From a virus (Duplodnaviria; Caudoviricetes), in IMG/VR virus record IMGVR_UViG_3300035520_000529, positions 44,210 through 108,209 of that record: a stretch of 64,000 nucleotides of DNA; one strand, written 5' to 3'. Shown piece by piece: positions 18,549 to 57,567 of this stretch (positions within the stretch are counted from its first letter, which is position 1; every line of letters begins with the position of its first letter). The notes under the pieces were generated by a model, which worked only from the letters and a program-made list of their open reading frames with translations, searched no databases and had not been told where the DNA came from. Position numbers and translations under genes: made by a program.

Positions 18549-21500
18549 CTATAAGTTTTCTTTAAGTAAGGTTGTTAATTGGTCTATGAATTGTGTAGGA
18601 TTGTCAGTGGCTACTTTGTCTATATTTATAGTTAAAGTTTGTGCTACTTGTGTGGATGATTTTAACAAACCATTACTTAATGCAGACGAGTTTTTTAAAT
18701 CCGTTAATGCTTCGTTAGTAACGTCTACAGAGTTCTTTAAGTTATTAACTGGTTCGGCAACAGTTGTGGTCAAACTAGTATTAAAATCTTCGGGTAGTCC
18801 TAAAATTTTATTAATGCTTTCTTGAGTTAGCTTAGTAAACTCATTAACGCTATTTGTAAGACCAGTAAGTTCATCAGTGTGAGTAGAGTTCATTTGTTCT
18901 TCTAACGCACTGATTTGCTTATCCAAAGCTTCTTCTTGTTTGTCAATAGCATCTATTTCTTTATCTATAGCATCTTGTTGGTCTTTAAGAACGTCTATTT
19001 GATCATCTAAGCCATCAATAATATCATTTATGCCGTCTATTTGGTCATCTAAAGCATCAATTTGGTCATCAAGAGCATCAATTTGCTTTTCAAGTTGAGC
19101 AATTTCTTCTTCTTGTAAAAGTTCATCGAGTTCTTGTTGAGCCTCCTTGATTTCATCTTTATCCGTTTCCCATTGCCAACCAAGTTCCTCAGTAAACACT
19201 CTAATAGTTTTTTGATTGAGTGCATTTTGTAATCTGATTTGTGCTTCTTGGATTTTTAAAGCACGTTCTTCCTCTTCATTCTTTTCTTCTAATAAATCTA
19301 TTTGGTCTTGGATAGCATCCTTTTGCTTTTCGATAGCTTCCTTTTGGTCTTCGATTAAGTCTATTTGGTCATTCCAATAGTCTTTCTGGTTTTCGATAGC
19401 ATCAATTTCATCATCTAGGGCATCTTTTTGAGCATTCCAATATTCTTTAGTTTCTTCTAAAGCTTCTTTTTGACTTTCCAGCAGTTCCTTTTGAGCATCT
19501 AATAGACCTTTATAAACTTCTTCTTCATATTTACGATAGTCATCAAGATACTCTATCTTATTGGCATAATATTCTTGATTTAGTTCATTGAGGTACTTAT
19601 AATAGTTCGCATCGTCTATAACGTTCATGTTGTGTAGATGTTCAAGGTATGCAAATTGTTCTTCAGCTTCTGCTTTGTAATAGTCAGTATCACTGCCGTA
19701 ATTACCCGTAGTAACCATAGCTAAATTATTTTTCAATAATTGTAAAGCTTGAATTTGAGCATAAATTTGTTCTGTAGCTTGTCCTCTACTAACTATCGAT
19801 TGTAAATTAACTAATTGCTCATCAATTTCTGCTTCAGCTAATTGCTTATAACTATTAGCATTTAGAGTTAGTTTACCAGTAGTCTTATCCAGTTGAATAC
19901 ATTGTGCATAACCACTATCTATTAACGATGTCATGGTACTTAATGATAAATAACCATTATCTTTAACTTCTTTAAAGGCATTACTCATGGTTGAAGCACT
20001 AGATTCAATGTTTTTAGTAGCTGATAAAATATCGCTAAAACTACCATTTGCAACTGAACCTACTCTACTAGACAAATCTTCCCACATAGACAATATATAC
20101 TCATTATCTTCTAATGATTGACTATTTTCGTCCAAAGCTTTAGATAATTCTTGTACTTGTTGACTAGCATAGGATTTATCAGCGGTTGAGACTGTTGAGT
20201 CACTAAGTTTTTGCTTGTATTCATTAATAGTACTAATTAATTGTGTTTGCTCTTCTTTTAAAGAGTTTATTGCGTTTTGACTATCAACTTTATAAGCTTC
20301 AATCTTAGCTTGTGCTAATTCCTCATACTTTTCAGTATTGATAGTTACTAAACCACTTTCTTTGTCTAGTTCAAGAATATCATCGAAATCGCTTTCTATT
20401 AGTTTAGTAATGTCCTCACTAGATAGACTTCCGCCTTTTCTAATGGTTTCCATCATCGTAGAGATTTCGCTAAATTCACTAGACAACGATGTTATCATAT
20501 CTGAACCTATTTTAGTTGGACTGATTTCATCTTCAAATGATTTGTATTCTTGTTCAAGAGCATAAAGGTCAGTATTTATTTCATTAAGTGCTTCATCGTA
20601 GCCAAGGTTGTCAAACTTAACTTGTAACATTGCTTGAATAGTTGGGTTGCTTTGACTAGCAATATCTTTCAAATCACTTTCTTTAGCACGTTCCAATTCA
20701 GCCTTTTGAGTAAGTAGTGTTGCTTTTTGGTCATTGTACTTCGCTTGAATTAGTTTTTCTAAAGCTTCTCTATCTAAATTGTATACATCAGCGTTAGAAT
20801 TATAATTTAAAGCTTCACTGTAACCATTGCTAATTAAAGATAGTATGGTTTCAGAAGTGAGTTTTCCTTGCTCTGACATTTCTGAATACGCATCAGTTAT
20901 TAAGTCTAAATTATCGGCTAGGGTTTCAAGCTCATCAGAACTACCACCCAATGCTTCTATTAATTCAGTAGTGGTTTGACTAATATTTTCAATTGCACTA
21001 GATACATTGAATGTATGTTCAGACGTATCCTCACTAATATATCCAAATTCTTCTAAATATTCGATTAGATTTTCAAAAGATATTCCACAATCATCGGCAA
21101 CGCTTTGCATATATTCAAATATATTAGCGTAACTTTGAGCCTTGTTTTTGTAGTCACCAGTTTGGAAGTCTAAAACAATTTCCGATGCTGTAGCAGTGCC
21201 TATTAACTTATTAAGGTCAATCTTAGAGAAAATATTTTCAATCTTAGTCTTGATAACATCTTCGTTAAAGTTAGTTAAAAATCCATCAAACCACGATTCT
21301 ACTGTATCAGAAAGACCTTTAGTTTCAATACCTGTAATAGTATCTTTTAAGCTATTTAGTACATCTGACTTAGACATCAGCATATTATAAAGGCTTTCAA
21401 TTTCTTCATAAGTAGATGTTGCCTTTTCAGTTTCACCATTGGCTATATAATCATTGTATTCACTAATTAAACTTTCAACACTACTTTTCCATTCGGAAAG

Positions 21501-23352
21501 AGTTTTACCATCTATATCATCGGTTGAGTAGTCTACAAAACTATCCAAGAATGATGAAATTGTAGTTTCATAATCGTCATATGTGTCCGAGGAATATTTG
21601 GAAATTTTCTTCTGTATAGTAGTTAAAACTTTACTAACGTCTTCACCAGTTTGAGTACCATATGCCTTAACATCATCGTAGGCTTTTTGTAAGTCCTTTT
21701 TATATTGATATATAGAACCATCATTGGTAATACCATATGTATACGTCATGCTTAAATCATTAAGAGATTCTGCTTTAAACCCATTGTTTTTCAAGATATT
21801 ACTAACTTCAGTAGAGAAATTATTTCTACGGAGTGAGATTGATGTGGAACTAAAAATTTTAGATGGGTCATACATCTTTTGGTAAGCAGTTTGAATATCC
21901 TTAGAATTTTCTTGCACAAACTTTGAACTTTCTAGAGCAGATATTTCTTGAAGTTTTTCCAATTGCTCATCAAGTTTACCATTAACTAAGTCTACACCAT
22001 CTGCTTGTGTTCCGTAAGTATCTATTAAAGTTTGTTGTAATTCTAATAATTGCTTATTTGTATCGACTAAGTTTTCAGTGTCTCCACTATTAGCATAGTC
22101 TTCTTGTGCTTCTTTTAATTCTTTCAAGTTGGAAATATTTTCTTCAAGTTCGTCATTAAAAGTTTTAAGATTACTACTAGCTTCAATAGTTTCATCGCTG
22201 ACCTTACCCAATCCCTTAGCCCAACTAACCAAAGTTGATACTATATGTGAAATAGCATATGAAAACAATCCGCCAACCACAGCATTTAATATACCCGATA
22301 CTACACTTAATGCAACTGTTCCTAATTTTGCAACAGCAAGTTTAGTTGCATAGCCTACTAAACCAACTTGTGCTTTATTTAAACTTTGTAGCTGTTCTGC
22401 TAATTTAGGATTTGATAATGCCAAAGTATTTAAAAATTCTTTCTGCGTATCATTTGCAACGTTAAGTTTCAAAGAATTTTCGTCAGCCAGTTTATTGTAT
22501 TCACTTAATGCAGTTAACGTACCAGATAGCCCTTTGCCATAATTAGATGTCTGTAGAAATTCCATGTAAGTTTGGTTGGTTGCTTGAGCATTTATTTTGG
22601 CTCTTGTTGCAAGATAATTTTCTAAGACAGTATTGGCGTTAGAAACCTCTTTTATGTACTTTGACATATCTCCATTGTTTTTAAGCGTATTATTATAGTT
22701 AGTAATGGCTTGTTTATAATCCTTAGTATTAATAATCGATGCACTATCCATTGAACTTGACAAATTAGAACTAATAAATTTACTTGACGTTAAAGATTTA
22801 CTTACAAGCGTGTCAAATTTTTTGAACAATGTACTTAGTGCGTTACCTATATTTTTGATAAAGGATGTGTTTAAAGTTTTGGTTATTATCTCCACAGAAC
22901 TAGTAACATTTTTTAGAGAAACGTTATTTATGTTATTAAAGCCATTTTGAATTTGGCTAATCTTGTCGCTATAATTATTCAAAGGTGTTGAACTTTTCTT
23001 AATGTTCTTAAAAAACTCATCAGTAAATCCTAAAGTACCAAATTTTTTATTCATTAGTCCATAAGCACTACCTATACTAGCAATTAGTACTGGAATTGCT
23101 CCAAATAAATCTACAAGTCGGTTAGCTTTGTTGATGAGTTGGTTTATGCCGTCTAAAAAGTCTTTTATAAACTCTGTATCGAATGTTGTAGTGGATATTT
23201 CTTGTGCAGATGCTTTAATAACATTTACTTTACCCTCAATGCTATCTACATATTTTTGGTTTTCTGTTTCAGCAGAACCCTCAGCATTGTTTGCAACTTC
23301 CAATGCTTTTTCAACTTGTGACCAGTTTGAGAGTAATGCTGATACTTGGTTT
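18549..23352 (-). CDS. Tape measure protein, exon 3
   Basis: Frame is open upstream of the ORF-track start: (A)NQVSALLSNWSQVEKALEVANNAEGSA...; long coiled-coil sequence; continues exon 2 ...AGKNRA. Confidence 0.85.
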
Positions 23353-23437
23353 CATTTATATTTAGCGAGTTCGTTAGGCTCACTTGATTTTAGTTAATAA
23401 TAGTGAGAGTTGAAGCCTTACAACTCTCGCTTGTGTT

Positions 23438-25975
23438 TTAGTCTAAATATGTAACTTTCTTGCAACCATCGAAAGCATCTTTTACGATTGTTTTAACTGT
23501 TTTAGGTACTTCTATTTCTAGATTTGTGCATCCTTTAAAAGAACCGCTTTGTATTGATTGTACACTATTGGGAATTGTTAGTTTTTGTAACGATTTACAA
23601 TTATGAAATGCATATTTACCGATAAGTTTCACATTTTCTCCGATGGTGACTTTTTCTAGGTTAGTACAGTCTTCAAAAGTACTTATACCAATGCGAGTTA
23701 CTTTATTTGGAATTTCTATTTCCGTTAAACTTTTACAAGCCCTAAATGCTTCGCTGTATATTTCTTTAATGTTTTTTGGTAAATTTACTTTTTCTAAGCT
23801 AATGCAATCTTTAAAAGCATGTGCACTAATACGAGTTACAGAATTAGGAATATCTATTTTTTTTAAATTTTTACATTCCGCAAAACATCTGCTACTTATA
23901 CTTTTAATATTTTTTGGTAAAATTATTTCTTCTAAATTACAACAACCACCAAAGGCAACATATCCAATACTTGTTACAGAATTAGGAATATTTATTTCTT
24001 TTAAATTTTTACAACCATAAAACATTGCTCTGTTTATATTTTTAAGGTTTTGTGGCAGAGTTATTTTTTCTAAATTAGTACAGCCACTGAACGTTACTCT
24101 GTTTATATTTTTTATGTTTTTTGGTAGAGTTATTTCTTTCAAATTAGTACAATTGCTAAAACTCCAATCACTAATGCAAGTTACAGTACTAGGAATCTCT
24201 ATTTCTTTTAAACTTTCACAACCACTAAAGGCTTCACTGTGTATTGCTTTGATACTTTTTGGCAAATTTATTTTTTCTAAGTTACTACATCCACTGAAAG
24301 CTTTTTCTCCAATCGTGGTTACTGTATTAGGAATCTCTATTTTCTTTAAAGTTTCACAATAACAAAATGCTTCATTGCATATTTTTTTAAGGTTTTGTGG
24401 TAGAGTTATTTCTTCTAAATTAGTACAACCATAAAAAACACTTTCTTCAATACTGCTTACAGCATTAGGAATGTTTATTTTCTTTAAACTTTTACAGTTA
24501 GAAAAAGCTTTGGTATATATACTTTTAAGGTTCTGTGGTAAAGTAATTTCTTTTAAGTTACTACATCCACTAAAAACACTTTCTCCAATTGTGGTTACTG
24601 TGTTTGGAATTTCTACTTCCTCTAAAGTTTCACAATTTCTAAAAAGTCCATTGTTAAAGATTTTGATGTTTTTCGGTAAAGTGATTTCTTCTAAATTAGC
24701 ACAACCATCAAAAGCATATTTGCCAACACTTTTAACACTATCTAGAAGTACCATCTTTATTATATTAATACAATTTCTAAAAGCATTATCTCCTATACAC
24801 TTTATATCCTTTGAAACTATTATTCCCTCTAAATCTACTTTTTGAGGACACTTTATGATAGTACTGTCACATTTATTAATTAACGCTCCTTGCGAATCAT
24901 AATACTTTTTATTGTTTTTATCCACAGATATTGTTTTTAAATTATCGCAATCATTGAAAGCATTTGAATCAATATGCATTACACTGCTAGGTATAGTTAT
25001 TTTTTCTAGACTAGTACATTCTTTAAAATCGGATGCGTCGATAGAAACTACACCATGTGGAATAGTTAACTTGATTAGACTTGAACACCCACTGAAACTA
25101 ATCTTTTCAGTATTTACTAACGATTTAGGAAATATTATTTCTTTTATAGTGGAACAGTCTACAAAAGCGTTAGGGTGTATATTACATATATTGTTTGGTA
25201 TTGTTAATATACTTTCACACCCTTTATATTTGTAAAGAACATTGCCTAGCACAATTAAATCATTTGGATAATCTCTTATGAATGGTGTATTTTCAAAGGC
25301 ATTATATCCAATAAAAATAACAGTATTTGGAATAATTATGTTGCTTAAACTTGTACAATTCTTAAAAGCATCTTCTTCAATAAATTTAACACCATTAGGA
25401 ATTGTTATGCTCTCTAAGTTTATACAATTGCTAAAAGCACCCTTATCGATGGAGACAACGCTACTTGGAATAGTTATGCTTTTTAAAGCTGTACATCTAC
25501 CAAAAACACCATCTCCTATAGAGGTAACATTATTAGGAATACTTATATTAGTTAAATTTGTGCACTCGTGAAAAACATATTTACCTATAAAGGCAACACT
25601 ATTAGGAATAGTTACACTAGTTAAATTTATGCAACCATCAAAAACATTATCTCCAATGGTGATAACTCCATTTGGAATAGTTACATTAGTTAAGTTTGTA
25701 CAACCTTTAAAAGCACACTCTCCAATAGATGTAACACTATTAGGAATAGTTATATTGGTTAAGCATGTGTAATTTTTAAAAGCACTACTTCCAATAGACT
25801 TAACACCATTAGGAATAAATATACTACGAATTTTTTGATTTCTCCATGAGAAGTCAGAACCACAAAATGCATAATCTCCAATAGATGTAACCCCATCGGG
25901 TATTACAACGTTGACTTCAGTTCCATTGTAATGTTCTAAAATACCATCTACAATTACAAAATCTTCACTTGCCAT
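23438..25975 (-). CDS. 845-aa BspA-type (LRR_5) leucine-rich repeat protein encoded inside the intron
   Basis: About 30 repeats of 23 aa (L..I.IPN.V..IG..AF..C); no signal peptide visible; own RBS. Confidence 0.92.
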   Translation of the reverse strand: MASEDFVIVDGILEHYNGTEVNVVIPDGVTSIGDYAFCGSDFSWRNQKIRSIFIPNGVKSIGSSAFKNYTCLTNITIPNSVTSIGECAFKGCTNLTNVTIPNGVITIGDNVFDGCINLTSVTIPNSVAFIGKYVFHECTNLTNISIPNNVTSIGDGVFGRCTALKSITIPSSVVSIDKGAFSNCINLESITIPNGVKFIEEDAFKNCTSLSNIIIPNTVIFIGYNAFENTPFIRDYPNDLIVLGNVLYKYKGCESILTIPNNICNIHPNAFVDCSTIKEIIFPKSLVNTEKISFSGCSSLIKLTIPHGVVSIDASDFKECTSLEKITIPSSVMHIDSNAFNDCDNLKTISVDKNNKKYYDSQGALINKCDSTIIKCPQKVDLEGIIVSKDIKCIGDNAFRNCINIIKMVLLDSVKSVGKYAFDGCANLEEITLPKNIKIFNNGLFRNCETLEEVEIPNTVTTIGESVFSGCSNLKEITLPQNLKSIYTKAFSNCKSLKKINIPNAVSSIEESVFYGCTNLEEITLPQNLKKICNEAFCYCETLKKIEIPNTVTTIGEKAFSGCSNLEKINLPKSIKAIHSEAFSGCESLKEIEIPSTVTCISDWSFSNCTNLKEITLPKNIKNINRVTFSGCTNLEKITLPQNLKNINRAMFYGCKNLKEINIPNSVTSIGYVAFGGCCNLEEIILPKNIKSISSRCFAECKNLKKIDIPNSVTRISAHAFKDCISLEKVNLPKNIKEIYSEAFRACKSLTEIEIPNKVTRIGISTFEDCTNLEKVTIGENVKLIGKYAFHNCKSLQKLTIPNSVQSIQSGSFKGCTNLEIEVPKTVKTIVKDAFDGCKKVTYLD

Positions 25976-26011
25976 AACATCAAGACCTTTCTACAATAAT
26001 TTGTTAGGTAT

Positions 26012-26040
26012 ATTATAGCAAATGTTTTGTGAAAAGTCAA
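26012..26040 (-). promoter_or_regulatory. Intron-internal sigmaA promoter for the LRR gene
   Basis: TTGACT-17 nt-TATAAT with extended TG, about 36 nt upstream of ATG 25975. Confidence 0.85.
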
Positions 26041-26451
26041 TATAAATCGTTTGCTTTTATTCGATATTTTAACTAAAATCACTCATGCTTTCACATGAGA
26101 TTAGACTATTTCTTCACCCTCACCATTATGTGTTAGGGGCATACCTTTTCCGTTTAAGAGGTTTTCACTCACTCACTTGAGCCGTACTCCTATTGACACA
26201 ATTCTGTCTATTGTGTCCTATGGGATAGCCGTTGAAGTTTCTCCGTGCCTTTCGGTTTAGGAGCTTACCTGCATGAACAACCATTGTTATCGGTTATTTA
26301 GGATTTAACCATGTAACCATCCTTACGTTGTTTCTACTTTCGTACCATCGTAGCGTGATTTCTCCGCTACTGTGGTGTAAGGCTTTAGGTATTACCTGCA
26401 ATTAGATATGTATGTTATGCACATTTCTGTACATAAGGGTAAATTAAGTTT

Positions 26452-27225
26452 GCCCTATTCTTACCTGCAATTTTTTCAAGTAATCCAGCTTGATTTATGT
26501 CGGATAAATCATCCCAAACGTTAGCAATTTCTCGCATAATTTCATAGGTTGATTTATATGTGTTACTATCTTTCATGATGTCTATACCCGACAAAGCTTT
26601 AATATCTTCTCTCATTTTGGAAGTGGTTTCAGCCATACCCTCAGTATCTTCGCCCATTTCCTCAACTTCTACCTTGCTAGAGCGTAACCTCATGGATAGC
26701 GTTTTTAATGCGTTACCCATACTGTTGGCATCTTGGGTTATTTCAGTACCACCAGTTATCATTGCTATAGATTCGTTTAAACTATTTCCTGCTACCGCTA
26801 AAGCACTAGCACTTTGTGTTAAACCCTCGCCAATATCAGAGGAACTTAACGCAAACTTATTACCTACATCGTTGAACGCATCCACGATACTAATGCTATC
26901 CTCAGCTTCAACGTTAAAAGCTTTCATAGCAGTTACAAGGTCACTAGTAGCAGTATCAATGTCAATGAAGCCTACATTAGAATACATAGTTGCAATATTA
27001 CCTAATGTTGTAGCTTCGTCTAGAGTGTAACCTAGTCTACTAAATGACGATACTGCATCAATAACGTCTGTAACAGTACTAGCTAACTCTTTAGCACTAC
27101 TAGTAGCAGTAGTTAAAAACTTATCATAAGTATCACTGGTTTCGGAAGTAACACGTTTTAAGGTTACCATCGAAGTATCGACTTCTTCAACAGTAGTTAA
27201 CATTTCTTTGAAATAACTTATTACT
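26452..27225 (-). CDS. Tape measure protein, exon 2 (conserved TMP core)
   Basis: VDTSMVTLKRVT, FSRLGY, VGNKFALSSSDIGEGL..SASAL, MGNALKTLSMRLR, LLEKIAGKNRA. Confidence 0.88.
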
Positions 27226-27400
27226 CTGATATATAAACTTTATAATTATTTATAAACACTCAAAAAATTATAAGATTATTTCCTTATTCAACGTGTCCGC
27301 TTTGGATTGTATTTCTACAATCTACTCACGCTTGTATGACACTCCAAAGGCGTAAATTCGGCGTTATCAACACCTACATATTAGCATAATCTTGATATTG
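27226..27400 (-). ncRNA. TnpB omegaRNA scaffold / IS607 right end
   Basis: Downstream of tnpB; shares TTCCTTATTCAACGTGTCCGCTTTG and GACACTCCAAAGGC.TAAATTC blocks with 47430-47515, weaker similarity to 55620-55710. Confidence 0.8.
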
Positions 27401-27403
27401 ACT

Positions 27404-28552
27404 CTATGCTAATTGATAGTTTGCTAAATTAATACTAGCGTTCTTATCTCTATCCAAAGTGAAACCACACACATCACAGTGGTATGTTCTATCCTTGAGT
27501 TTCAAATCTTTCTTGACGTTTCCACATTGAGAACACCTTTTGCTTGATGGATAGAACCTATCAGCTTGAATAAATCTAATTCCGTACTTTTCGGACTTGT
27601 ACTTCATAAGGCTAATAAACTGATAGAACCCCTGTTCTGCTATGGCTTTTGAAAGATGTTTGTTTTTCAACATACCTGTGACGTTTAAGTCTTCCATAAC
27701 TATTCTCGATGGCTTGGTTTTCGCAATCGCATTAGTTACTTGGTGGTTGTGATTTAGACGGATGTTCTTTAACTTTTCGTGGATAAGCTTGATTATTCGC
27801 TCTAGTTTCAAGATGTTTTGAGTCTTAACATACCTCTTGCCTTGGCGGTTCTTCTCATATTTCCTCGAAACTTGACGTTGCAATCTTCTAAGTCTCTTTT
27901 TCAACTTTCTAATCTTTTGAGTTTTGTTGATATTTCTAAAAGGACTATCGAAATTACTAACAGTCGCGAGTTCCTTGATGCCTAAGTCAATGCCTACAGA
28001 TAAGTTCTCATCCAGTTCTAAAGGTTGGTTTTCACACTCAATACCTAAAGACAAGTACCAGTATCGTCCATTGAATTTTATTCTTGGATTGCATACTGAT
28101 ATTTTATCTTTCTTGTAATTGCCTTGAGGTAGCCTATTTTCGTCATTCATCTTGACTACACCAATCTTTTCAAGCTGTATTTGACTATCCGTAACTTTAA
28201 ATTTAGTTGGTAAGTGATAGAAAGATATAGTGCTTCTCTTCTTGGACTTATGTCTAGGATACTTGGCAACTTTCTTAAAGAACTTACTTCTAGCATCGTC
28301 AAAGTCTTTAATGGCTTGTTGAGGTATCTCCGAGGAGACTTCTTTAAGCCATGGGTACTTGTTAGAGTTCCTAATCTTAGTGAAGTGCTTTCGCATAGTA
28401 CCAACGCTTACAGATTTTCCGTATAGTTTGTAATAGGTTTCGAAAAATCCTAACGCCCAGTTGTACGCAAATCGCATAACACCTGCTGATTTCCACATTA
28501 AAGTCTCTTGCTCTTTCGTTGGATAGAGTTTGACTTTTATGCCTTTAATCAT
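27404..28552 (-). CDS. tnpB: TnpB RNA-guided nuclease (IS607 type)
   Basis: RuvC D/E/D intact (GIDLG, VMEDL, DRDKNAS); Zn finger CSQCG...CDVCG. Confidence 0.95.
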   Translation of the reverse strand: MIKGIKVKLYPTKEQETLMWKSAGVMRFAYNWALGFFETYYKLYGKSVSVGTMRKHFTKIRNSNKYPWLKEVSSEIPQQAIKDFDDARSKFFKKVAKYPRHKSKKRSTISFYHLPTKFKVTDSQIQLEKIGVVKMNDENRLPQGNYKKDKISVCNPRIKFNGRYWYLSLGIECENQPLELDENLSVGIDLGIKELATVSNFDSPFRNINKTQKIRKLKKRLRRLQRQVSRKYEKNRQGKRYVKTQNILKLERIIKLIHEKLKNIRLNHNHQVTNAIAKTKPSRIVMEDLNVTGMLKNKHLSKAIAEQGFYQFISLMKYKSEKYGIRFIQADRFYPSSKRCSQCGNVKKDLKLKDRTYHCDVCGFTLDRDKNASINLANYQLA

Positions 28553-29156
28553 CTTCAGACAACTCCTTAATTATCTTTTTGGTTTTATTGGCTCTTTTCC
28601 CTTGTAATCTACAACTGAACACAGTTATTATTTGGATTAAATCTTCGACAATTTCTTCTTCGTCACTTCTTTCGGTATTGTCGATTATTTCAATTTCAAC
28701 ACCCTTAGAAATACAAATATTTTCTATTAGTTCGTATCCAAACCTAACCAATCTATCCTTATATAGAATTACGATTTTAGAAACTTCCTCATTTAAAACC
28801 ATACTCATAAGCTTGTTCAAGCCTTTATTTTGATAATTAATTCCGCTACCTATATCCGAGATTATTGAAAACTGATAGCCTTTAGCATACATATACATCT
28901 TGACGTTTTCAATTTGTCTATCTAAAGCTTCTTTTTGCTTTTGACTAGACACTCTACAGTAGCCTATTGTCTGCTTAGATTTTACCTTTTCACCATTATA
29001 AATTTTAAGTTGTTCATCGGTATAATAGCGATAACCTGTCACCTCATCCACATATGCAGGTTTTAGTTTACCACTTTTATCCCAATTTCTTAAAGTTTGT
29101 TCTGTACGATTTATTAATTTAGCAAATTGTCCTATGGAATATTTTCTAATTTCCAT
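28545..29156 (-). CDS. tnpA: IS607 serine recombinase/transposase
   Basis: MerR-like HTH (TLRNWD..GKL, GYRYY) plus catalytic GYCRVSS, DIGSG, DRLVRFG. Confidence 0.95.
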   Translation of the reverse strand: MEIRKYSIGQFAKLINRTEQTLRNWDKSGKLKPAYVDEVTGYRYYTDEQLKIYNGEKVKSKQTIGYCRVSSQKQKEALDRQIENVKMYMYAKGYQFSIISDIGSGINYQNKGLNKLMSMVLNEEVSKIVILYKDRLVRFGYELIENICISKGVEIEIIDNTERSDEEEIVEDLIQIITVFSCRLQGKRANKTKKIIKELSEDD

Positions 29157-29177
29157 GTTTTATCACCTCTTGTACTA

Positions 29178-29206
29178 ATTATAACATAAACATTATAATA
29201 TGTCAA
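29178..29206 (-). promoter_or_regulatory. Intron-internal sigmaA promoter for tnpA-tnpB
   Basis: TTGACA-17 nt-TATAAT with extended TG. Confidence 0.85.
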
Positions 29207-29402
29207 GAGTTATTTTGAGTATTTATAAATAATTATAAAGTTTATACCTTTTGCTATAGAACGCAACTTCTATAACGCTATTTCGCTCACGCTAATAGCC
29301 ACTCTCTTTCGAGACGTGCAAAGACTATTTCTTCACCCTCACCATTACGTGTTAGGGGCAAACCGCTTCCACTACCATACGCTTGTAGTGTACTCCATCT
29401 CT

Positions 29403-29583
29403 GGATAGCCGTTGAAGTTTCTCCGTGCCTTTCGGTTTAGGAGCTTACCTGCATGAACAACCATTGTTATCGGTTATTTAGGATTTAACCATGTAACCAT
29501 CCTTACGTTGTTTCTACTTTCGTACCATCGTAGCGTGATTTCTCCACTACTGTGGTGTAAGGCTTTAGGTATTACCTGCAATT
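29403..29583. repeat. 181-bp direct repeat of 26223..26403 (shared intron core)
   Basis: Identical by eye except one position (CTCCACTAC vs CTCCGCTAC); 29322-29360 also matches 26103-26141. Confidence 0.92.
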
Positions 29584-29675
29584 CAATTTGTGTGCTACGC
29601 TCGTTTCCGAACGTACCCAGCTGAAAACTCTATAATTTTATATTTTTATTATAGTTAATTATAAAGTTTTCGTTA

Positions 29676-32600
29676 CTGTAAATCATAGTGCCTAAAACTG
29701 CTTTTAAACCTATCTTTGAGAATAAGTTATCTAATTCTTGACCAACACTTTTACCAGTTTTGCCAAGTTTAGTAACTTCTGTTTTAATGCTTTCAAACCT
29801 ACTTTGTAAACCTAGTAGATTTTCTTTAGTCCTATCTATGCTATTTGCTTCACTAATAATACTATCTAACTGAGACTTAAATGAATAAGTCGAACTCATT
29901 GCTTTTCCGTTTTTTGCTTGAAATTGTGTAACATCAGCTATAAGTTTAGAGTATGCACTATCTATTTTATTTTGAGAAGTTGTAAAACTTACGCCACTTA
30001 ACGCACTAGCAGATTCACTCTTTAATTTTTCAAAGTTTTCAGTACAGATTATTATATTATTGGATAAGCTTTGTAGTTGTGCACTTTGAGATTCAAAAGT
30101 ATTTTCTCCATTTTTGATACCATTTAAAATAGTTGTAAATTCTACTGTATTTTTGTTTAGTTCTTGTTGCTCTTTATTTAAAGCTTCAATATAAGTTTTT
30201 CCAACGTAATTTTTATCACTGATGGTGGTGGTATCTTTAATAGTAGCATTTTTAGTATTCTCATTAATGCTTAATTTGTTAATTAAATTTGTAATAGTAT
30301 TGTTTGTTACTGTTGCACTATTAAGTTGTGATTCATATTTTTGTAAGGTTTTAAGTTGTGAATTTATTGACTCAAATTCTTTATTTAGTTCTTCATATCT
30401 AGTAATAGCTTTTTTGGGATTGGACTTGTCTATGTTATTTAAATTAGTTTGAATTTCTTTTAGATTATTTAATAATTGAAACTTTTCTAACGCACTAGAT
30501 TTTGTGCCTAATTTGGTAGTAATTTGATTATTTAATTCACTAATTTTATCCTCAATTTTAGGTATAGCATTACTTTTAGTGCTTAATTCAGTAACACTTT
30601 TTGATACATTATCTATATTAGATTTAAAGATAGCTAGATTTTCTGTATTAATATTAGTAGGATCGTTTACTAAAGTAGCATACGTTTCTTTTAAAGATTC
30701 AAGAGAAGTTTTTATCGTATTGATATTATTAGTTAATTCAGTACCTAAACCATTTCCACCCAAATTGTTAAATTTTTCTTCAATTGTGGTAAGATTGCCA
30801 CTTACCTTGTCTAATTCTTTTTTATATTTTTCAAGTTGGGTGATGTTTTGATTAATAGTATTATCGGTTATCTTGCCATAGTTTCTAGTATAATTTTCAT
30901 ATCCTTTTTGATAAGCCTTTTCTAACTTAGCAATGGTTTCATCACTAAAACCATACGTTTCAGCTATGTTAGTAGTCTTTTGACTATCATTCTGTAGTTT
31001 TGCTTGAATGTATTCTAGATATTTTTTACCAGTTTCATCGAGTAAAGCTGTTTGTTCTCTAATAATAGTATTTTCGGAATTTAATTCATTTTCAACAATC
31101 TTACTTGTAGCGGATGATTGAAGTTCTAATTTTGTTTTATTTGCAAGAGCAGTGGTGATTTTTGTTATAATGTTTAGTTGCTCTTTTAACACATTATTAT
31201 TATAATTATTATTATTATAACTATTAAGTGTTTTAGTGTTTTGATTAGCGTTGCTATCAATAGCATTGCCATAATTCCTTATAGAGGGTATGTTATAATA
31301 TTGTTGATACATTGAATTTAATTTGGCAATAGTTTTTTCGCTAAGTCCATACTTGTCAGCTATATTAGAACCATTTTCGCCATTCATTAAAGTTTTAATA
31401 TATTCTAAGTATATTTTACCATTTTTATTGAGCAAAGCAGTTTGTTCATCAATGACCTTATTTTCAGAAGCTAACCTTTCCTCAAATGTTTTGTCTGTGG
31501 TAGTCGATTGAAGAAGTTGCTTATTTCTATTAGAATAAGCTTTAGTGATTTCTTTAATATAACCTAATTGTGATTTAAGGTTCTCGCTATTGTTAAGTGA
31601 TTCTTTACTTTGCTTTGATTGAGCGATTTGTGTTGTTTTGATATTAACAGTTAAGCCTACTTTTTTTAAAGCTTCTTCAATTGCAGTTTTAAGGTTTTCA
31701 ATAGCACCTGTGGCTTCAAACGCACCTATTTTTATAGTTAAAGGATTGCTTTTATCGTTTAACTTGCCAACAACATTCTCGTTAATCTCTTTCTTAGTTA
31801 GAGGTTTGATTTGAACTGGTATCTTTAAATCAGAAACCTTTTTTTTAACTTCGTTAATTGCTTTAGTAGCACTAATAGACTTTAGATTAAGAGTAATTTT
31901 ATTGTTTAGTTTTTCGCTTATAAGAGTTTTTAATTCTTTAATGTTTTGGCTATTAACTTTCAAGTTTACTTCTAATGGTACATTAGTGCTTTTTAATTTT
32001 TCACGGAGTTCCTTTAAGGCTGAACCATACGTAAACTTGCTAACTCCAACTGAAACATTAACCTTATTTAGTTTAGTTTTTAATTTATCGTTTATGCTTG
32101 ATATACTATTAGATTTATTATCATATCCAAAACTTAAATTTACCTTTTGAGAATCAACGTATTTTTGTACTTGATTTAATGTATTTTGTAGCGTTTCTTC
32201 ATTAAACCCATTAAACTTTAGTTGAAAATCTAACTTGTTAAGTTCATCAACAATTTTAGAATAATCTATTGTAGCATTTATATTAGAACCATTTAAATTA
32301 ATATTAATCGGATTGCTTTGTATGTTTTCTCTAATTCTAGTTAGAGCTTCAGTGATTTGGGTCTCTATGTTTTGAACGTTAGTAGTAAGTTCGATTTTTG
32401 GAACAGCATTCTTAATAGTTTCAAGTTGTTTATTAAATGTTTCTGATGAGGAAAAATTATTTTCCAAAGATATTTTTATTTTTGTATTTTCTTGAATAGA
32501 TTTTAGTGCTTCATTTAATTCTTTAATTTGGTTTATAACAGTGTCATTTTCTATAGTAGTTTCACTTGTGGTTGTTTTGCCAACTTCCTCATTAACTTCA

Positions 32601-33721
32601 TTAATCTTTTTTTTTACATTTTTAATGTCATCGGAAATATTAAGTTTTAAAGTGTATCCCTTAGTATTTTTGCTCCATTTACTTAAGGTTTCATCCGCTT
32701 CCTTAATTACTGTTAAAACATCTTTTAAATCACTAGCATCTACTTCTATCTTATACTTTAGATTACCCTCTTTAATTCTTTTTAAACTTTCACTATATGC
32801 TATGTCTGGGTTAAAATTATTAGTTAAAGAGTTAGATACAGTATCATAGTCTAATTTTACCATTTTAGTTTGTAATTCAGAAACCATTTTGGTATATTGA
32901 GACAATATTTCCTTTTTAAAGTCAGTAAAACTATTACCATACTGATTTTTTGCTTTATTCAAAAAATCATTTATCTCTGCAGAATTGTCAAACATAGTAC
33001 CCATCCACGTTTTAAATCCGCTAAAATTAGATTTAGTACCATTTTGGTATTGGTATTTTTCGATATTTTGTAATATTAGAGCTAACGCATTGGCTCGGTC
33101 TAATATCTCTTCCTGTGAGACGCTTTCCGCATTTTTGACTTCTTCTCCTGCTTTTAGAATTTTCTCACTTATACCATCACCATACAATTGGATAGCTTTT
33201 TCAACACTAGTTTTATCTTGACTAAACTCCTCAACTAGTGCTGATGAACTTAATTTAGTCCTATCTGAAAGAGTTTCTAGAGAGGTAATTAAACCATTTA
33301 TCGAAGAACTGTCGAGACTTAATTCCTTGAGCTTTGTTTTATTCAAATCACTTACATCAAATAATTTTGAGAATTTTTGTTCCTCTTTTTGAGTAAAATA
33401 CATATATTCAAAATTACTTGCTTGTTCTAATAGTTTTAACGCTTCTATCAATTCCAATATTTTTTTAGTAGAAGCATCAGTATCAATTTCTGGAATTTTC
33501 AAACTATCTAAATCATCGTTTACCTTATTTTTTAATTTGTCTATTACACTTTTGAATTTAGCAGTAGCGTTTGCAAGTTCATCAGCGTTCATATTAGGCT
33601 TAAATGTAATATCATATTTTCTTTTTGTTATGTTTATGGCATTTTCAACAATTTGATTCAAGTCTTCTTGATTAAGACCAGCACCAAATTTAATCATTGC
33701 TCCATTAGTTGATTCTGACAT
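29676..33721 (-). CDS. Tape measure protein, exon 1
   Basis: Long helical protein after the tail chaperone genes; joins exon 2 in frame. Confidence 0.82.
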
Positions 33722-47359: not shown

Positions 47360-47550
47360 CCGTTACTGAAAACTTATAAAAAGTTATAACAACTCTTGAT
47401 TAAGTTACAAAATTTATAACTTTTAGGTTTCATTCCTTATTCAACGTGTCCGCTTTGAGTTTTGTTTCCAAAACCTACTCACACTTGTGTGACACTCCAA
47501 AGGCTTAAATTCCCGACTAACGTATCGGTACATTCGTGTAACACTTGTGT
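47360..47550 (-). ncRNA. TnpB omegaRNA scaffold
   Basis: Conserved blocks shared with 27280-27360. Confidence 0.75.
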
Positions 47551-47553
47551 TAG

Positions 47554-48720
47554 CTATGCTACACGATAGTCTGTACAGTTTTTCAAATTCACACTAGCTT
47601 GGAAGTCTCTATCTATGGTGTTTCCACAGACTTCACAATGATAAATTCTATCTTTAAGCTTTAGGTCTTTCTTGATGTTTCCACAACAAGAACATATTTT
47701 ACTTGATGGATAGAACCTATCAGCAACCCTTAATTCTATGTGCTTCTCTTGGCACTTATACTCTAACTGTCTATGGAACTCATAGAAGCATTGTTCTTGG
47801 ACTGCCTTAGCTAGGTGCTTATTCTTCAGCATACCCTTAACGTTCAAATCTTCCAACACTATGAACTTTGGTTCTCGGTTCACAATCTCGGTAGTGGTTT
47901 GATTCAAGTAGTTATGTCGAATGTTCGTTAATCGGTGACTTAATTTTAAAAGTTGTCTTTGACTTTTTACAACGTTACGTGTTTTACAGTAACGTTCTCC
48001 TTTCTTATTCATTAGGTATTTTCTAGATGCCTTGCGTTGTAACCTACGCTTTTTCTTGTTTAACTTACGTACTTTCATACTTTTGTTGATGTTCTTATAA
48101 GTGTTAGCGTCTGAGCAGATAGCCAAATCTTTGACACCTAGGTCTATGCCGATTCCATCATTTTTTGGTGTAACGTAACGCTCATCACACTCAATGCCTA
48201 CAGATAACCACCAGTTAAGACCGTCGAAAGTAACTCTAGGATTAGAGTACTTTGCATTTTCGGGGATTCTGTTAGGCTCTGCGAGTCGAACCCAGTTGAA
48301 AAGTTGCTTGTTAACTTTTCTACTAGTGGTCAACTTTTCGAGTTTGACTTTACCATCTTTAAATTTAATCTTAGCGGTATCTACATAGAAACTAGGCTTT
48401 GAATGGTGTCTGCTCTTAAACTTTGGATGCTTAGCTAAACCTTTAAAGAACTTCTCAAACGCTCCACAACAGTCAATGATAGCCTGTTTAGTAACGTTGT
48501 TGCTGTAGTCATTAATCCATTGATACTCATCTTGAGTTTTGAGTTGTGTGAAAAGTTTTCTTAAATAATAATGACTGATAAACTTTCCACCGTTCTTGTA
48601 ATTTTTATTTTGGTAATCTAATGCCCAATTGTACGCAAATCTCGCAACACTTGCACTTTGAAAGAGTTTAGTCTGTTGCTTATTATTAGGACAAAGTTGA
48701 ACTTTAATAGTCTTAATCAT
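47554..48720 (-). CDS. tnpB: TnpB RNA-guided nuclease (IS607 type)
   Basis: GIDLG, VLEDL, DRDFQAS, Zn finger. Confidence 0.95.
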   Translation of the reverse strand: MIKTIKVQLCPNNKQQTKLFQSASVARFAYNWALDYQNKNYKNGGKFISHYYLRKLFTQLKTQDEYQWINDYSNNVTKQAIIDCCGAFEKFFKGLAKHPKFKSRHHSKPSFYVDTAKIKFKDGKVKLEKLTTSRKVNKQLFNWVRLAEPNRIPENAKYSNPRVTFDGLNWWLSVGIECDERYVTPKNDGIGIDLGVKDLAICSDANTYKNINKSMKVRKLNKKKRRLQRKASRKYLMNKKGERYCKTRNVVKSQRQLLKLSHRLTNIRHNYLNQTTTEIVNREPKFIVLEDLNVKGMLKNKHLAKAVQEQCFYEFHRQLEYKCQEKHIELRVADRFYPSSKICSCCGNIKKDLKLKDRIYHCEVCGNTIDRDFQASVNLKNCTDYRVA

Positions 48721-49318
48721 CTTCCGTTAACTCCTTTATCATCTTCTTAGCTTTATTTGCTCGTTTACCTTGCAATTTACAGCTAAAAACGGTCACAATT
48801 TGAATTAAGTCCTCAACTAGTTCTTCTTGTTCGGTTTTTTCGGTATTATCTATCACTTCGATTTCACAGTCATACAGTTCTGCAATATATTCAATTAATT
48901 CAAATCCAAAACGTGTAAGTCTATCCTTGTACAGAACAACAACCTTTGATATACTGTGGTTTATTATACATTTTATTAAATCTTGTAATCCTTTTCTTTT
49001 GTAGTTAATACCTGAACCTATATCGAATATTATTTCAAATGGTTTACCCTGTGCAATAAGATAGGTTTGCATATTTTCTATTTGTCTTTGCAAATCATCT
49101 TTTTGTTTAATAGAACTAACTCTACAATAACCTACAGTCTTTTCAACTTTTTTGACTGGTTTGTTTAACAATTGGTTTAAATCATCTTCGGAGTAGTAAC
49201 GATAACCATTAGGACTTTTATGATGTGGTTTTAATTTCCCACTTCTATCCCAATTTCTCAACGTTTGTGCAGATACTCCTAATATTTTCGTCATTTCATG
49301 TATAGTGTAATATTTCAC
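48713..49318 (-). CDS. tnpA: IS607 serine recombinase
   Basis: HTH plus GYCRVSS, DIGSG, DRLTRFG. Confidence 0.95.
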   Translation of the reverse strand: MKYYTIHEMTKILGVSAQTLRNWDRSGKLKPHHKSPNGYRYYSEDDLNQLLNKPVKKVEKTVGYCRVSSIKQKDDLQRQIENMQTYLIAQGKPFEIIFDIGSGINYKRKGLQDLIKCIINHSISKVVVLYKDRLTRFGFELIEYIAELYDCEIEVIDNTEKTEQEELVEDLIQIVTVFSCKLQGKRANKAKKMIKELTEDD

Positions 49319-55552: not shown

Positions 55553-57567
55553 CCGCTACGATAAATACATACAAACTTAAACAAATCTATAATATTTATA
55601 CTATGACGTTCTCACGAAACGTCTTCCTACTTCAACGAGTCCGATTTTGCTAACACATGAGCGTTAAGCTACTTTCGTTTGGTGTAACTCTCCATAGGCT
55701 TAAATTCCCTAGTAGCGATAGGTACACATTAGCATAATCTTTTAAGTGATTCTATGCTAATTGATAGTTTGCTAAATTAATACTTGCATTGAAATCTCTG
55801 TCGGCAACGTAGCCACAAGCATCACAACGATATACTCTGTCTGATAGTTTCAAATCCTTCTTGACGTTTCCACAACAAGAACACATCTTTGAACTTGGAT
55901 AGAACTTATCAGCTTGGACAAACTTAATGCCAAAAGTTTCGCACTTATACTTCATTTGACGTATAAACTCATAAAACCTCTGTTGAGATATTGCCTTAGA
56001 TAGATGTTTATTCTTCAACATACCTTTGACGTTTAAAGACTCCATAACTATGCGAGATGGCTTGGTTTTCACTATCTCGGTAGTAGTTTGGTGCGTGTAA
56101 TCGTTACGGATATCGGTTAGCCTTTTGTGGATAAGTCTAATCTTAGCGTTCTGCCTTTGGACGTTCTTACAATCCTTTAATGGACGTTTCCATATAGGTC
56201 TACGCTTAATATCGTAGCTTTGCGTGTTGTTAATAAGCATCCTTGAGAGCTTTCTCTGCTCTCTTTTCAAACGCTTTTCCAAACTTCTAACACGCTTAGT
56301 CTTATTGATGTTCTTGTAGACCGTTCCATTAGACACAGTCGCTAACTCTTTGACACCTAAGTCTATACCTAAACTTTCACCAGTGAGTTCGTACTCTACC
56401 GCAGAAACCTCATATCCAACAGACAAGTACCAGTACTTTCCGTCATAAGATATTCTAGAATTAGAGTAGCGTTCACCATTCTTTAACTTAGGCAATGGCT
56501 TAGTAGTCTTGACTACACCTAACTTTTCGCCTTGAAAACCATTTTGAACTCTTTTCAAACTCTCATAGTTGACGTAAAAGCTAGGTTTACTCCTATGTTT
56601 AGACTTATATTTTGGCTTTCCTGATATGCCTTTGAAAAACCTTTTAAGAGCGTTATCTGCATCTTTGATAGCTTGTTTCATAACGTTACTACTAACTTCT
56701 TTCAACCATGTGTGGGTAGTAGGCTTTAACTCATTATTAATGTGTTTTCTGACTGCTCCCTCACTAATTGACTTGCTACCAGTTTCACCATTCACAAGGT
56801 ATTCATGATACACTCTTTCGTTCTCCGAAAGGTAGTAGTTGTATGCCCATCGTGAAGTTCCTGCACTTTTCCAAAACAGAGTTTCTTGCTCTTTGGTAGG
56901 TTTTAACCTAATCTTAATTGCTCTTAGCATTATCTCACCTCACTTATTTGATACTTACATTATACCACAAAAGTGACGTAATTACAAGGTTTTTTAGCAA
57001 ACTATTTGTACCTTATTGATACCAAATTTATAGATTCTTTAGTTATATATTTATCTCATTCACATTAGAACGCAACTTCTAATGCAGTCTTTCTGTTACC
57101 AGTAGACCTCTAACGCTTTCACGTTAGCGTAGACTATATCTTCATCTATGATTGAACCATAGAGCCACATTTTTCTTCCGCCATTAGCTTGCGGTTTTAC
57201 TCTCCCTCAAGGAGATAGTCTTTGGAGGTCTTCCATGCCTTTCGGTTTAGGACTTTCCCTGCTAAACACCCATTGTTATGACACTTAGGACTAACGTTTC
57301 CAGTGTGTCACGCATCGCCTTTCACTGGCACTGATTAGTTTTTATTTCACCTTATGCTATCCATACTATTTTTTTGCTTTCGCACCATTCAGCTTATCGT
57401 TTCCAATTACTGTTTAGGTTGTATGACTTTAGGGGTTCAAAGCATTTAACGTGGAGTTTCCACCAGTCGCCCGATGGAAAGGGCTTTCTGTTATATATTT
57501 TCCTTAAAAATATACACAAGTACATATTTGTTTATGCTTGTCTATATTTTTAGTAACAGTTTTGTTA
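55553..57567 (-). mobile_element. Non-autonomous IS607-type IStron (group I intron + tnpB + omegaRNA, no tnpA), 2015 nt
   Basis: CCAAAGACUAU and GAAGAUAUAGUCU core motifs at about 57130-57225, P9 CUAACGU-GAAA-GCGUUAG; GG core (GTTGGG|TAAC, TAGCGG|GAG); removal gives in-frame FLKGYFVG-ENSIDKLGADFIKALM. Confidence 0.88.
55752..56930 (-). CDS. tnpB: TnpB RNA-guided nuclease (IS607 type)
   Basis: GIDLG, VMESL, DRDFNAS, Zn finger; own promoter TTGTAA-17-TATAAT at 56959-56987. Confidence 0.95.
   Translation of the reverse strand: MLRAIKIRLKPTKEQETLFWKSAGTSRWAYNYYLSENERVYHEYLVNGETGSKSISEGAVRKHINNELKPTTHTWLKEVSSNVMKQAIKDADNALKRFFKGISGKPKYKSKHRSKPSFYVNYESLKRVQNGFQGEKLGVVKTTKPLPKLKNGERYSNSRISYDGKYWYLSVGYEVSAVEYELTGESLGIDLGVKELATVSNGTVYKNINKTKRVRSLEKRLKREQRKLSRMLINNTQSYDIKRRPIWKRPLKDCKNVQRQNAKIRLIHKRLTDIRNDYTHQTTTEIVKTKPSRIVMESLNVKGMLKNKHLSKAISQQRFYEFIRQMKYKCETFGIKFVQADKFYPSSKMCSCCGNVKKDLKLSDRVYRCDACGYVADRDFNASINLANYQLA

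Follow-up and report, generated by a model that had tools for sequence, protein, structure and literature searches.

A phage tape-measure gene split by an IStron and an ordinary group I intron, and the probable conversion of a ribozyme domain between them

The window analyzed here is a stretch of 64,000 nucleotides (positions 44,210 to 108,209) of the IMG/VR virus record IMGVR_UViG_3300035520_000529, a metagenome-derived virus contig of 108 kb with an estimated completeness of 64%. It contains a gene for a tape-measure protein (TMP) that appears to be split by two group I introns. The upstream one belongs to an IS607-type IStron, and the downstream one, designated intron 1, carries a gene for a leucine-rich-repeat (LRR) protein. 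The two are nearly identical over 181 nt of their ribozyme cores and do not align elsewhere, apart from one short match at the level of the intron family. The probable origin of this identity is a non-reciprocal exchange at the DNA level, an ectopic gene conversion, that put ~181 nt of the IStron into intron 1.

The tape-measure gene and its two predicted introns

All genes of the region are on the minus strand, and the list of open reading frames (ORFs), together with Pfam, identifies three apparent ORFs as pieces of one TMP gene, which are listed here with the exons assigned to it.

33721..29630, minus strand: apparent TMP ORF, 1363 amino acids (ORF list)
27203..26415, minus strand: apparent TMP ORF, 262 amino acids, with PhageMin_Tail domain (ORF list and Pfam)
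23303..18549, minus strand: apparent TMP ORF, 1584 amino acids (ORF list)
29676..33721, minus strand: TMP exon 1, 4,046 nt, ending ...ATGATTTACAG (ORF list and junction alignment)
26452..27225, minus strand: TMP exon 2, 774 nt or 258 codons, PhageMin_Tail core domain (Pfam PF10145, E = 5.6e-24; junction alignments)
18549..23352, minus strand: TMP exon 3, 4,804 nt, starting AAACCAAG (..NQVSALLSNW) (in silico splicing and junction alignment)

When the exons are joined in silico (33721..29676, 27225..26452, and 23352..18549), they give 9,624 nt, or 3,207 codons, with a terminal stop only. Both junctions align without gaps with the TMPs of MT837120, phage Sundance, and the related contig L011, all of which are uninterrupted at the two intron sites of the window. 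At the first junction, GTMIY|RVISYFKEM corresponds to GGMTFRIIAYFKQM in L011 and to AALHQIQNAMRKIY at the same gap-free position in MT837120; at the second, AGKNRA|NQVSALL corresponds to AGKNRANVLAAIL in L011 and GGKRNANAVSAIL in MT837120, and the spliced AGKNRA|NQV reproduces the continuous AGKNRAN of L011. The predicted ligated sequences are ...TTTACAG|AGTAATAAG... for exons 1 and 2 and ...AATAGGGC|AAACCAAG... for exons 2 and 3; each intron ends in a terminal G (G27226 in the IStron and G23353 in intron 1), and ligation in silico restores the host frame. The in-frame TAG that closes the 1363-residue ORF (29632-29630) lies within P1 of the IStron and is intronic, a point that the original prediction did not make. 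Recoding of TAG was rejected, since this codon terminates 13 of the 41 long ORFs and the standard genetic code applies. The sequence thus predicts a single gene for a TMP of 3,207 amino acids, interrupted by two putatively self-splicing group I introns. An IMG/VR search found no close relatives of the TMP or of the LRR gene.

The length of exon 2 is in frame, with a chance of one in three, so direct ligation of exons 1 and 3 (..IY|R-NQV..) keeps the frame; given the shared core of the two introns, occasional skipping of this 774-nt exon could produce a second tape-measure isoform.

The upstream element has the following features.

27226..29675, minus strand: IS607-type (group B) IStron, 2,450 nt, starting with U after exon ...ACAG and ending ...AUAUCAG (boundaries from L010)
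29616..29680, minus strand: IStron P1, exon CAG and intron U paired with GCUG, internal loop, long AU stem (fold, motif coordinates, inverted repeat)
29403..29583, minus strand: IStron copy of the shared block, comprising J3/4, P4, P5/P5abc, P6, J6/7, and the 5′ strand of P7 (repeat; helices from the Rfam alignment of the intron 1 copy)
29322..29370, minus strand: IStron P3′ strand (CGGTTTG), P8, and 3′ strand of P7; the second, 92% match (repeat search)
29213..29246, minus strand: 5′ arm of the 34-bp AU-rich stem around the IS607 genes (inverted repeat 97% complementary; fold)
29178..29206, minus strand: tnpA promoter-like site, TTGACA-17-TATAAT, 12/12, TG-extended (motif match)
28545..29156, minus strand: tnpA, 203 amino acids, serine recombinase with MerR-type helix-turn-helix (Pfam Resolvase and MerR)
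27404..28552, minus strand: tnpB, RNA-guided nuclease, 382 amino acids (Pfam OrfB_IS605 and Cas12f1-like_TNB)
27280..27350, minus strand: RAGATH-18 motif, part of the TnpB omega-RNA scaffold (Rfam RF03064, 68.4 bits versus a gathering score of 44.9)
27232..27265, minus strand: 3′ arm of the 34-bp stem, which is the right-end repeat, then UAUAUCAG and the 3′ splice site (inverted repeat, fold)

Contig L010, from another phage, carries a copy of this IStron inside a DnaE-like gene (95.4% identity over 2,446 nt). The similarity ceases exactly at both element ends, and without the IStron the DnaE-like frame is restored (LLCVNT|GQFKSDNDRMKY). A more distant copy in L011 (75.6%) is within the TMP gene, ~65 codons upstream of the IStron site of the window, and a placement at the same site was rejected on this account. 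The copies in a DnaE-like gene and a TMP gene indicate that the element is mobile as a unit. The window, L010, and L011 IStrons have the ends ACAG|U ... AUCAG| in common, with no target duplication; the targets among the IStrons compared are TTTACAG|, ATACAG|, and TAACAG|, and the predicted IStron-less site in the window is ACAG|AGTAATAAGTTATTTC. A TGGG target with the 5′ splice site at 29616 was rejected because it leaves a TAG in the mRNA and because the L010 copy starts 59 nt further upstream.

From 5′ to 3′ the IStron consists of P1, whose region also holds the left-end repeat AAACTTTATAATTA, P2 with a GAAA loop, the core, hairpins of the P9 region, the 34-bp AU-rich stem with the cargo, and the 3′ end. 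It has the attributes of a group B IStron, namely a 5′ intron followed by tnpA and tnpB, 34-nt stem arms, and a G-ending site with a U start and a CAG end. TnpB aligns over its full length with the solved TnpB 8iaz (E = 4e-65) and has candidate RuvC motifs (GIDLG, EDLN, and DRDKNAS), which were read by eye without a reference for the catalytic residues; the RAGATH-18 motif identifies a structured omega-RNA scaffold 3′ of tnpB. Both genes are intact, and pN/pS values between the window and L010 copies (0.10 for tnpA and 0.14 for tnpB) indicate purifying selection on each. By analogy with CboIStron, exon 2 would supply the TnpB guide with its first bases, and the nuclease would cut the IStron-less TMP allele. 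In an animal-gut metatranscriptome, short contigs ~90% like window positions 27227-27359 (the omega-RNA and right end) have a word depth of ~700-1,100, and that of the tnpA and tnpB parts is ~5 or less; the contigs are those of relatives rather than of this phage.

The downstream element has the following features.

23353..26451, minus strand: ordinary IA2-type group I intron (intron 1), 3,099 nt, with LRR cargo (Rfam RF00028 and junction alignment)
26436..26456, minus strand: intron 1 P1, exon AGGGC and intron AAA paired with UUUACCCU (Rfam alignment, fold)
26223..26403, minus strand: intron 1 copy of the shared block, the probable converted tract (repeat, trees, phylogenetic tests)
26103..26222, minus strand: long P7.1/7.2 of the ordinary class, P3′ AGGTATG (26146-26140), P8, and 3′ strand of P7 (family alignment)
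26069..26099, minus strand: P9 with GAAA loop (26099-26082) and 5′ arm of the 12-bp P9.1 stem (26080-26069) (fold with the cargo replaced by a tetraloop)
26012..26040, minus strand: LRR gene promoter-like site, TTGACT-17-TATAAT, 11/12, TG-extended (motif match)
23438..25975, minus strand: cargo ORF, BspA-type LRR protein of 845 amino acids (Pfam LRR_5, E = 4.5e-289)
23353..23428, minus strand: intron 1 3′ end, with terminator-like hairpin (23428-23405), P9.1 3′ arm, P9.2 hairpin (23384-23364), tail AAAUAUAAAUG, and terminal G23353 (fold, coordinates)

Intron 1 matches RF00028 at 26461..26082 over model positions 1-253 of 253, with 53.2 bits against a gathering score of 50. In the fold, 26080-26069 pairs with the 3′ arm of P9.1 (23397-23386), and this stem closes the cargo loop. 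The splice model CAGG|U was rejected since it leaves a gap of 4 amino acids relative to the homologues; GGGC|A gives AGKNRAN as in L011 and fits the Rfam P1. Pfam detects LRR_5/LRR_8 repeats only, and no nuclease or transposase domain, in the cargo, and intron 1 does not qualify as a mobile intron bearing a homing endonuclease. The cargo protein is most similar to long LRR proteins with ~30-40% identity, the few named ones being from metagenome-assembled genomes (MAGs) of Clostridia and Kiritimatiellia. The loop of a group I intron can therefore hold an ordinary cargo gene, here for an LRR protein, instead of a nuclease gene; organellar group I introns are known to carry non-nuclease cargo (PMC3073962), and a limited literature search found no phage group I intron with such cargo.

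The shared block and its boundaries

Between 26223-26403 and 29403-29583 there is a single mismatch in 181 nt (26366 C versus 29546 T, 99.4% identity), and the original prediction, made by inspection of this DNA, was correct in these coordinates and in the count. The block is enclosed in a direct repeat of 213 nt with 94% identity (26223-26435 and 29403-29615), whose copies are 3,180 nt apart and both on the minus (coding) strand. A second match had been placed at the S/P8 region with a length of ~39 bp; it is present, but extends over 49 nt with 92% identity (26103-26151 and 29322-29370), and of its four mismatches three are at or beside the P3′ strand and one is in the P8 loop. This stretch of P8 and the P7 3′ strand is at the background level of the family, L011 and L013 being 94% identical in it. 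P1/P2/P3, P7.1-7.2, P9, and the cargo cannot be aligned between the introns, which agrees with the earlier statement that P1, P9, and the payload are unrelated.

In the Rfam alignment, the shared block comprises J3/4, P4, P5 and its extension, P6, J6/7, and the 5′ strand of P7. Its boundaries are sharp (26403/26404 and 26223/26222), the 5′ one being directly after the 5′ strand of P3 and the 3′ one directly after the 5′ strand of P7. In P3, intron 1 has CATATCT/AGGTATG where the IStron has CAAATTG/CGGTTTG, the differences being compensatory, and the 3′ strand of P7 is identical in both introns. Because each intron retains the P3 and P3′ of its own lineage, which are complementary to each other, and the two do not differ in the 3′ strand of P7, both the chimeric and the donor ribozymes should fold and splice. 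GAAA loops in L2 and L9 are also kept by both introns, so that peripheral contacts with a swapped domain would plausibly persist.

Phylogenetic conflict and the origin of the block

Scans of IMG/VR and GTDB yielded relatives of both introns, with IStrons represented by L010, L011, L022 (an ORF-less copy in a Clostridiaceae MAG), and L023, and ordinary introns by L012/L016, L013-L015, L017-L021, and L024. The family alignment of 11 cores contains 27 base pairs with compensatory change, including 5 of the 7 pairs of P3, and separates two structural classes, IStrons with a short P7.1/7.2 and a P9 of their own, and ordinary introns with a long P7.1/7.2 and a TCTCATRYGAAAGYATGAG-type P9. In P2, P3, P7.1/7.2, and P9, intron 1 belongs to the ordinary class, and in the block alone to the IStron class. 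In the tree of the block, its distance is 0.006 to the window IStron, 0.03 to L010, and 0.2 to the L011 IStron, but in the tree of the remaining columns it groups with L018/L019/L020/L024. Approximately unbiased (AU) tests reject a grouping of intron 1 with {window IStron, L010} in the remaining columns (p = 2.4e-5) and with the ordinary introns in the block columns (p = 7.6e-5). The conflict between the trees of tract and rest, together with the sharp boundaries, identifies intron 1 as a mosaic. The window, L010, and L011 IStrons are close together in both partitions, although the forks among the three are not resolved; intron 1 is the sole sequence shown to change place between partitions and is therefore the recombinant and the likely recipient.

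L010 and the window IStron differ at four sites of the block, and at all four intron 1 agrees with the window IStron. One of these sites is in the P7 5′ strand, ACGGCTA, where the G occurs only in the two window copies and is replaced by A in L010, L011, L012, and L020; since L011, L012, and L020 agree with L010, this G is a derived state common to the window copies alone. The nearest foreign relative of the block is that of L010 (97%), which belongs to the same IStron lineage and is 97-98% identical over the block, and all others reach at most 90%, within a family background of 74-90%. Over 67 nt, a second IStron core of this phage has a similarity of 81%, and the similarity between neighbouring introns is 75-85% inside the related contigs L012, L017, and L019. 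Near-identical neighbouring cores are thus not routine, contrary to the possibility, raised with the original prediction, that equally similar cores would be common among unlinked introns of this host group.

The observations are best accounted for by a recent ectopic gene conversion involving direct repeats separated by 3.2 kb, for which both the direction, from the IStron to intron 1, and the repair mechanism are proposals. Most simply, a break in intron 1 would have been repaired with the IStron core as template, and J3/4, P4-P6, J6/7, and the P7 5′ strand would have been replaced in the process. Selection for splicing would trim the surviving tract to a self-contained RNA domain with every long-range helix intact, since three P3 pairs would be lost if the tract extended by another 7 nt in the 5′ direction. 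With a reciprocal crossover, exon 2 and its essential PhageMin_Tail domain would be lost and the IStron P3 would be paired with the P3′ of intron 1, and only non-crossover products should for this reason survive. The earlier suggestion of a recent core exchange between an IStron and an ordinary intron is sustained by the boundaries, the conflicting trees and AU tests, and the shared derived G. The related idea of a snapshot of how insertion sequence (IS) parts are gained or lost is not, because the tract ends at the 5′ strand of P7, P9 and the cargo loop are untouched, and P1, P2, P3, P7.1/7.2, and P9 are class-specific. The idea of a modular core with swappable cargo applies only in a broad sense, which is familiar from group I introns at large, as in the ORFs of P6 and P9 loops of the relatives.

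Several observations weigh against this interpretation. In the block, a grouping of {window IStron, L010} to the exclusion of intron 1 is not significantly rejected (p = 0.085). The AU groups were chosen after the BLAST patterns had been seen, which makes the p-values somewhat optimistic, and the direction of conversion depends on few sequences. Database and metagenome scans found no intron 1 orthologue with an unconverted core: metagenome scans with two block patterns and a first scan of genome contigs gave no matches, and a search of phage GenBank DNA gave a trivial match of 58 nt alone. Splicing of both introns is predicted, and some homogenization by the assembler of two copies that were already very similar is possible. 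The IStron core (29675..29300) is not reported by the Rfam group I model alone, either at its gathering score or at E ≤ 0.1, but its P4-P7 is 99.4% identical to the copy that scores, and P3, P5a, P6, and P8 covary in the family alignment. The P1 of intron 1 is a canonical internal guide hairpin, but has a C26452.A pair instead of a U.G wobble at the 5′ splice site; C at this position occurs exceptionally in introns (Tourasse 2014, PMC4227781).

Conversion in the reverse direction, in which the window IStron received the P4-P7 block from the LRR intron, is unlikely. A pairwise near-identity is symmetric by itself, and the block test with p = 0.085 also leaves room for such an event, but the independent L010 copy, in another phage and another gene, has the block at 97-98% contiguous with IStron-specific flanks, and the next relative of the block is the L011 IStron. 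The P6 motif CCTAAACCGAAAGGCA is also present in the second IStron of this phage, and it is intron 1 that moves between partitions in which the IStrons stay together.

It is improbable that the identity arose as an assembly artefact, in which bubble-merging or consensus polishing of a short-read metagenome homogenized two cores that were similar without being the same. The contig is indeed derived from a metagenome, and the sole sequencing run found, a gut metatranscriptome accounting for 6% of the words, contained relatives only, with abundant omega-RNA-like contigs, and not this phage. De Bruijn assemblers, however, merge only copies that are already ~95% alike or more, and with a family background of 74-90% an unusually recent exchange would still be needed, so that homogenization could exaggerate such an exchange but not create it. 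One mismatch persists in the block and four in the second match. Across the two copies, the order of the exons, the two junctions, and the frame form a coherent whole, which argues against a mis-join, and a crossover between the copies would have removed exon 2.

That intron 1 is instead a former IStron copy, which transposed within the TMP gene, lost its IS607 part, gained the LRR gene, and diverged in its periphery, would fit the common core block, the position of both cargos just downstream of a strong promoter, in a loop that follows P9 and is closed by a stem, and the existence of ORF-less IStron derivatives (L022; Tourasse 2014, PMC4227781), but is very improbable, as P1 is canonical with an internal guide hairpin at a site AGGGC|A rather than ACAG|U, IS607 end repeats and the long AU-rich stem are absent, P2, P3, P7.1/7.2, and P9 group with ordinary introns (the IStron placement being the one rejected with p = 2.4e-5), and ordinary divergence cannot leave 181 nt at 99.4% beside unalignable flanks.

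If conversion from the IStron to intron 1 is accepted, the locus represents a natural and fixed domain exchange between two different group I introns in which donor and recipient are still adjacent. The coincidence of tract ends with RNA-domain ends would make it a direct test in vivo of the modularity of the P4-P6 domain. An essential structural gene of a large phage would also depend on two predicted splicing events. A tentative extension, which we consider possible but doubtful, is that ribozyme domains are evolutionary units of their own, and that the IStron is a reservoir of a functional P4-P6/P7 module that overwrites, and maybe rescues or homogenizes, the catalytic domain of immobile neighbours; exchange of this kind could explain IS607 elements that are paired with different intron scaffolds. 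None of these findings overturns current models.

Known systems and other elements of this phage and its relatives

Group B (IS607-type) IStrons include CbISt/CsISt1/BcISt1 (Tourasse et al. 2014, PMC4227781) and CboIStron (Zedaveinyte et al., bioRxiv 10.1101/2023.11.20.567912), and phages of C. botulinum are already known as their hosts (PMC4227781; bioRxiv 10.1101/2023.11.20.567912). The window IStron resembles them in its 5′ group I intron, serine-recombinase tnpA, tnpB, and 3′ omega-RNA, in an exon that ends with G and an intron that starts with U, in the lack of target duplication, in having copies in different genes, and in the AU-rich stem that encloses the ORFs (34 bp, >80% AU; group B range 15-34 bp). 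It is closest to CsISt1, with an AG target site and a CAG end, whereas its target, (A/T)ACAG, differs from the TGGG of CboIStron and the group B consensus. Tourasse et al. did not find the intron component of an IStron as a separate copy in any genome (PMC4227781); the probable conversion described here suggests that this part can leave the IStron, at least as a domain, which bears on the origin of IStrons. The window IStron is unlike known group B elements in its location in a phage tape-measure gene and in the copying of its ribozyme domain into a neighbouring non-IS intron.

The intron cores of the T4 td, nrdB, and sunY genes reportedly recombine within one phage genome to give chimeric introns (Bryk & Belfort 1990; Hall et al. 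1989). These events are said to have been laboratory-selected and usually to delete the DNA between the introns. The present case is likewise chimeric, but natural, non-deleting, and fixed in the genome, with an IStron as donor. Mosaic omega introns of yeast mitochondria show sharp switches of identity attributed to gene conversion between cargo-bearing and cargo-less introns (Wu & Hao 2014, PMC4059233); those are allelic exchanges at one insertion site after horizontal transfer, whereas here the exchange would be ectopic, between two sites and two structural classes. A phage gene with several related group I introns is also known, as here, but the introns described above differ in their unrelated P1 and 3′ ends, and exon skipping is not in evidence. 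A group I intron of Turicibacter is a non-IS intron with a core that resembles group B IStrons and with ends unlike IStron termini (Tourasse 2014, PMC4227781). It resembles IStrons as a whole and is in another genome, whereas intron 1 is a mosaic with its donor 3.2 kb away.

Most of the intron relatives sit in TMP genes, although a recent survey places phage introns mostly in genes of DNA metabolism (PMC11878797). Introns of the family occur repeatedly in TMP genes, at several sites of the PhageMin_Tail region (L011, L012, L013, L015, and L020), and in L012 and L019 two or three are side by side. Several relatives carry CapR/zinc-ribbon ORFs in their P6 or P9 loops, in which no nuclease domain was detected; ORFs of this type may encode homing endonucleases.

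A second IStron of a different lineage is located at ~57487..~55560 (minus strand) of the window, inserted after TATAACAG. It consists of a group I core (~57480-57090), a promoter, tnpB only (56930..55752), and RAGATH-18 (55698..55624, 78 bits); it contains the P6 motif CCTAAACCGAAAGGCA, and its core is 81% like those of the TMP introns over 67 nt. Like the core of the IStron in the TMP gene, it is unreported by Rfam at relaxed thresholds. A plain IS607 element at ~49400..~47360 (minus strand) has tnpA (49318..48713), tnpB (48720..47554), and RAGATH-18 (47503..47433) without an intron core; it is intergenic, follows TTAACAG, and ends ...AACGG directly before an ATG at 47353. One phage therefore has IS607 elements both with and without an intron partner. 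Outside the window, G000:C1:36539-36580 (plus strand) matches the P6/J6-7 part of the block over 42 nt (83%) on the opposite strand and may mark an additional intron within the early region of this phage. Positions 2248-3109 of L022 (JAVBPD010000113.1) are an ORF-less derivative, ~860 nt, of a related IStron whose ends are 74% identical, and L023, a second contig of the same MAG, holds a copy with the tnpB-bearing part. These copies hint at Clostridiaceae among the hosts of this IStron clade.

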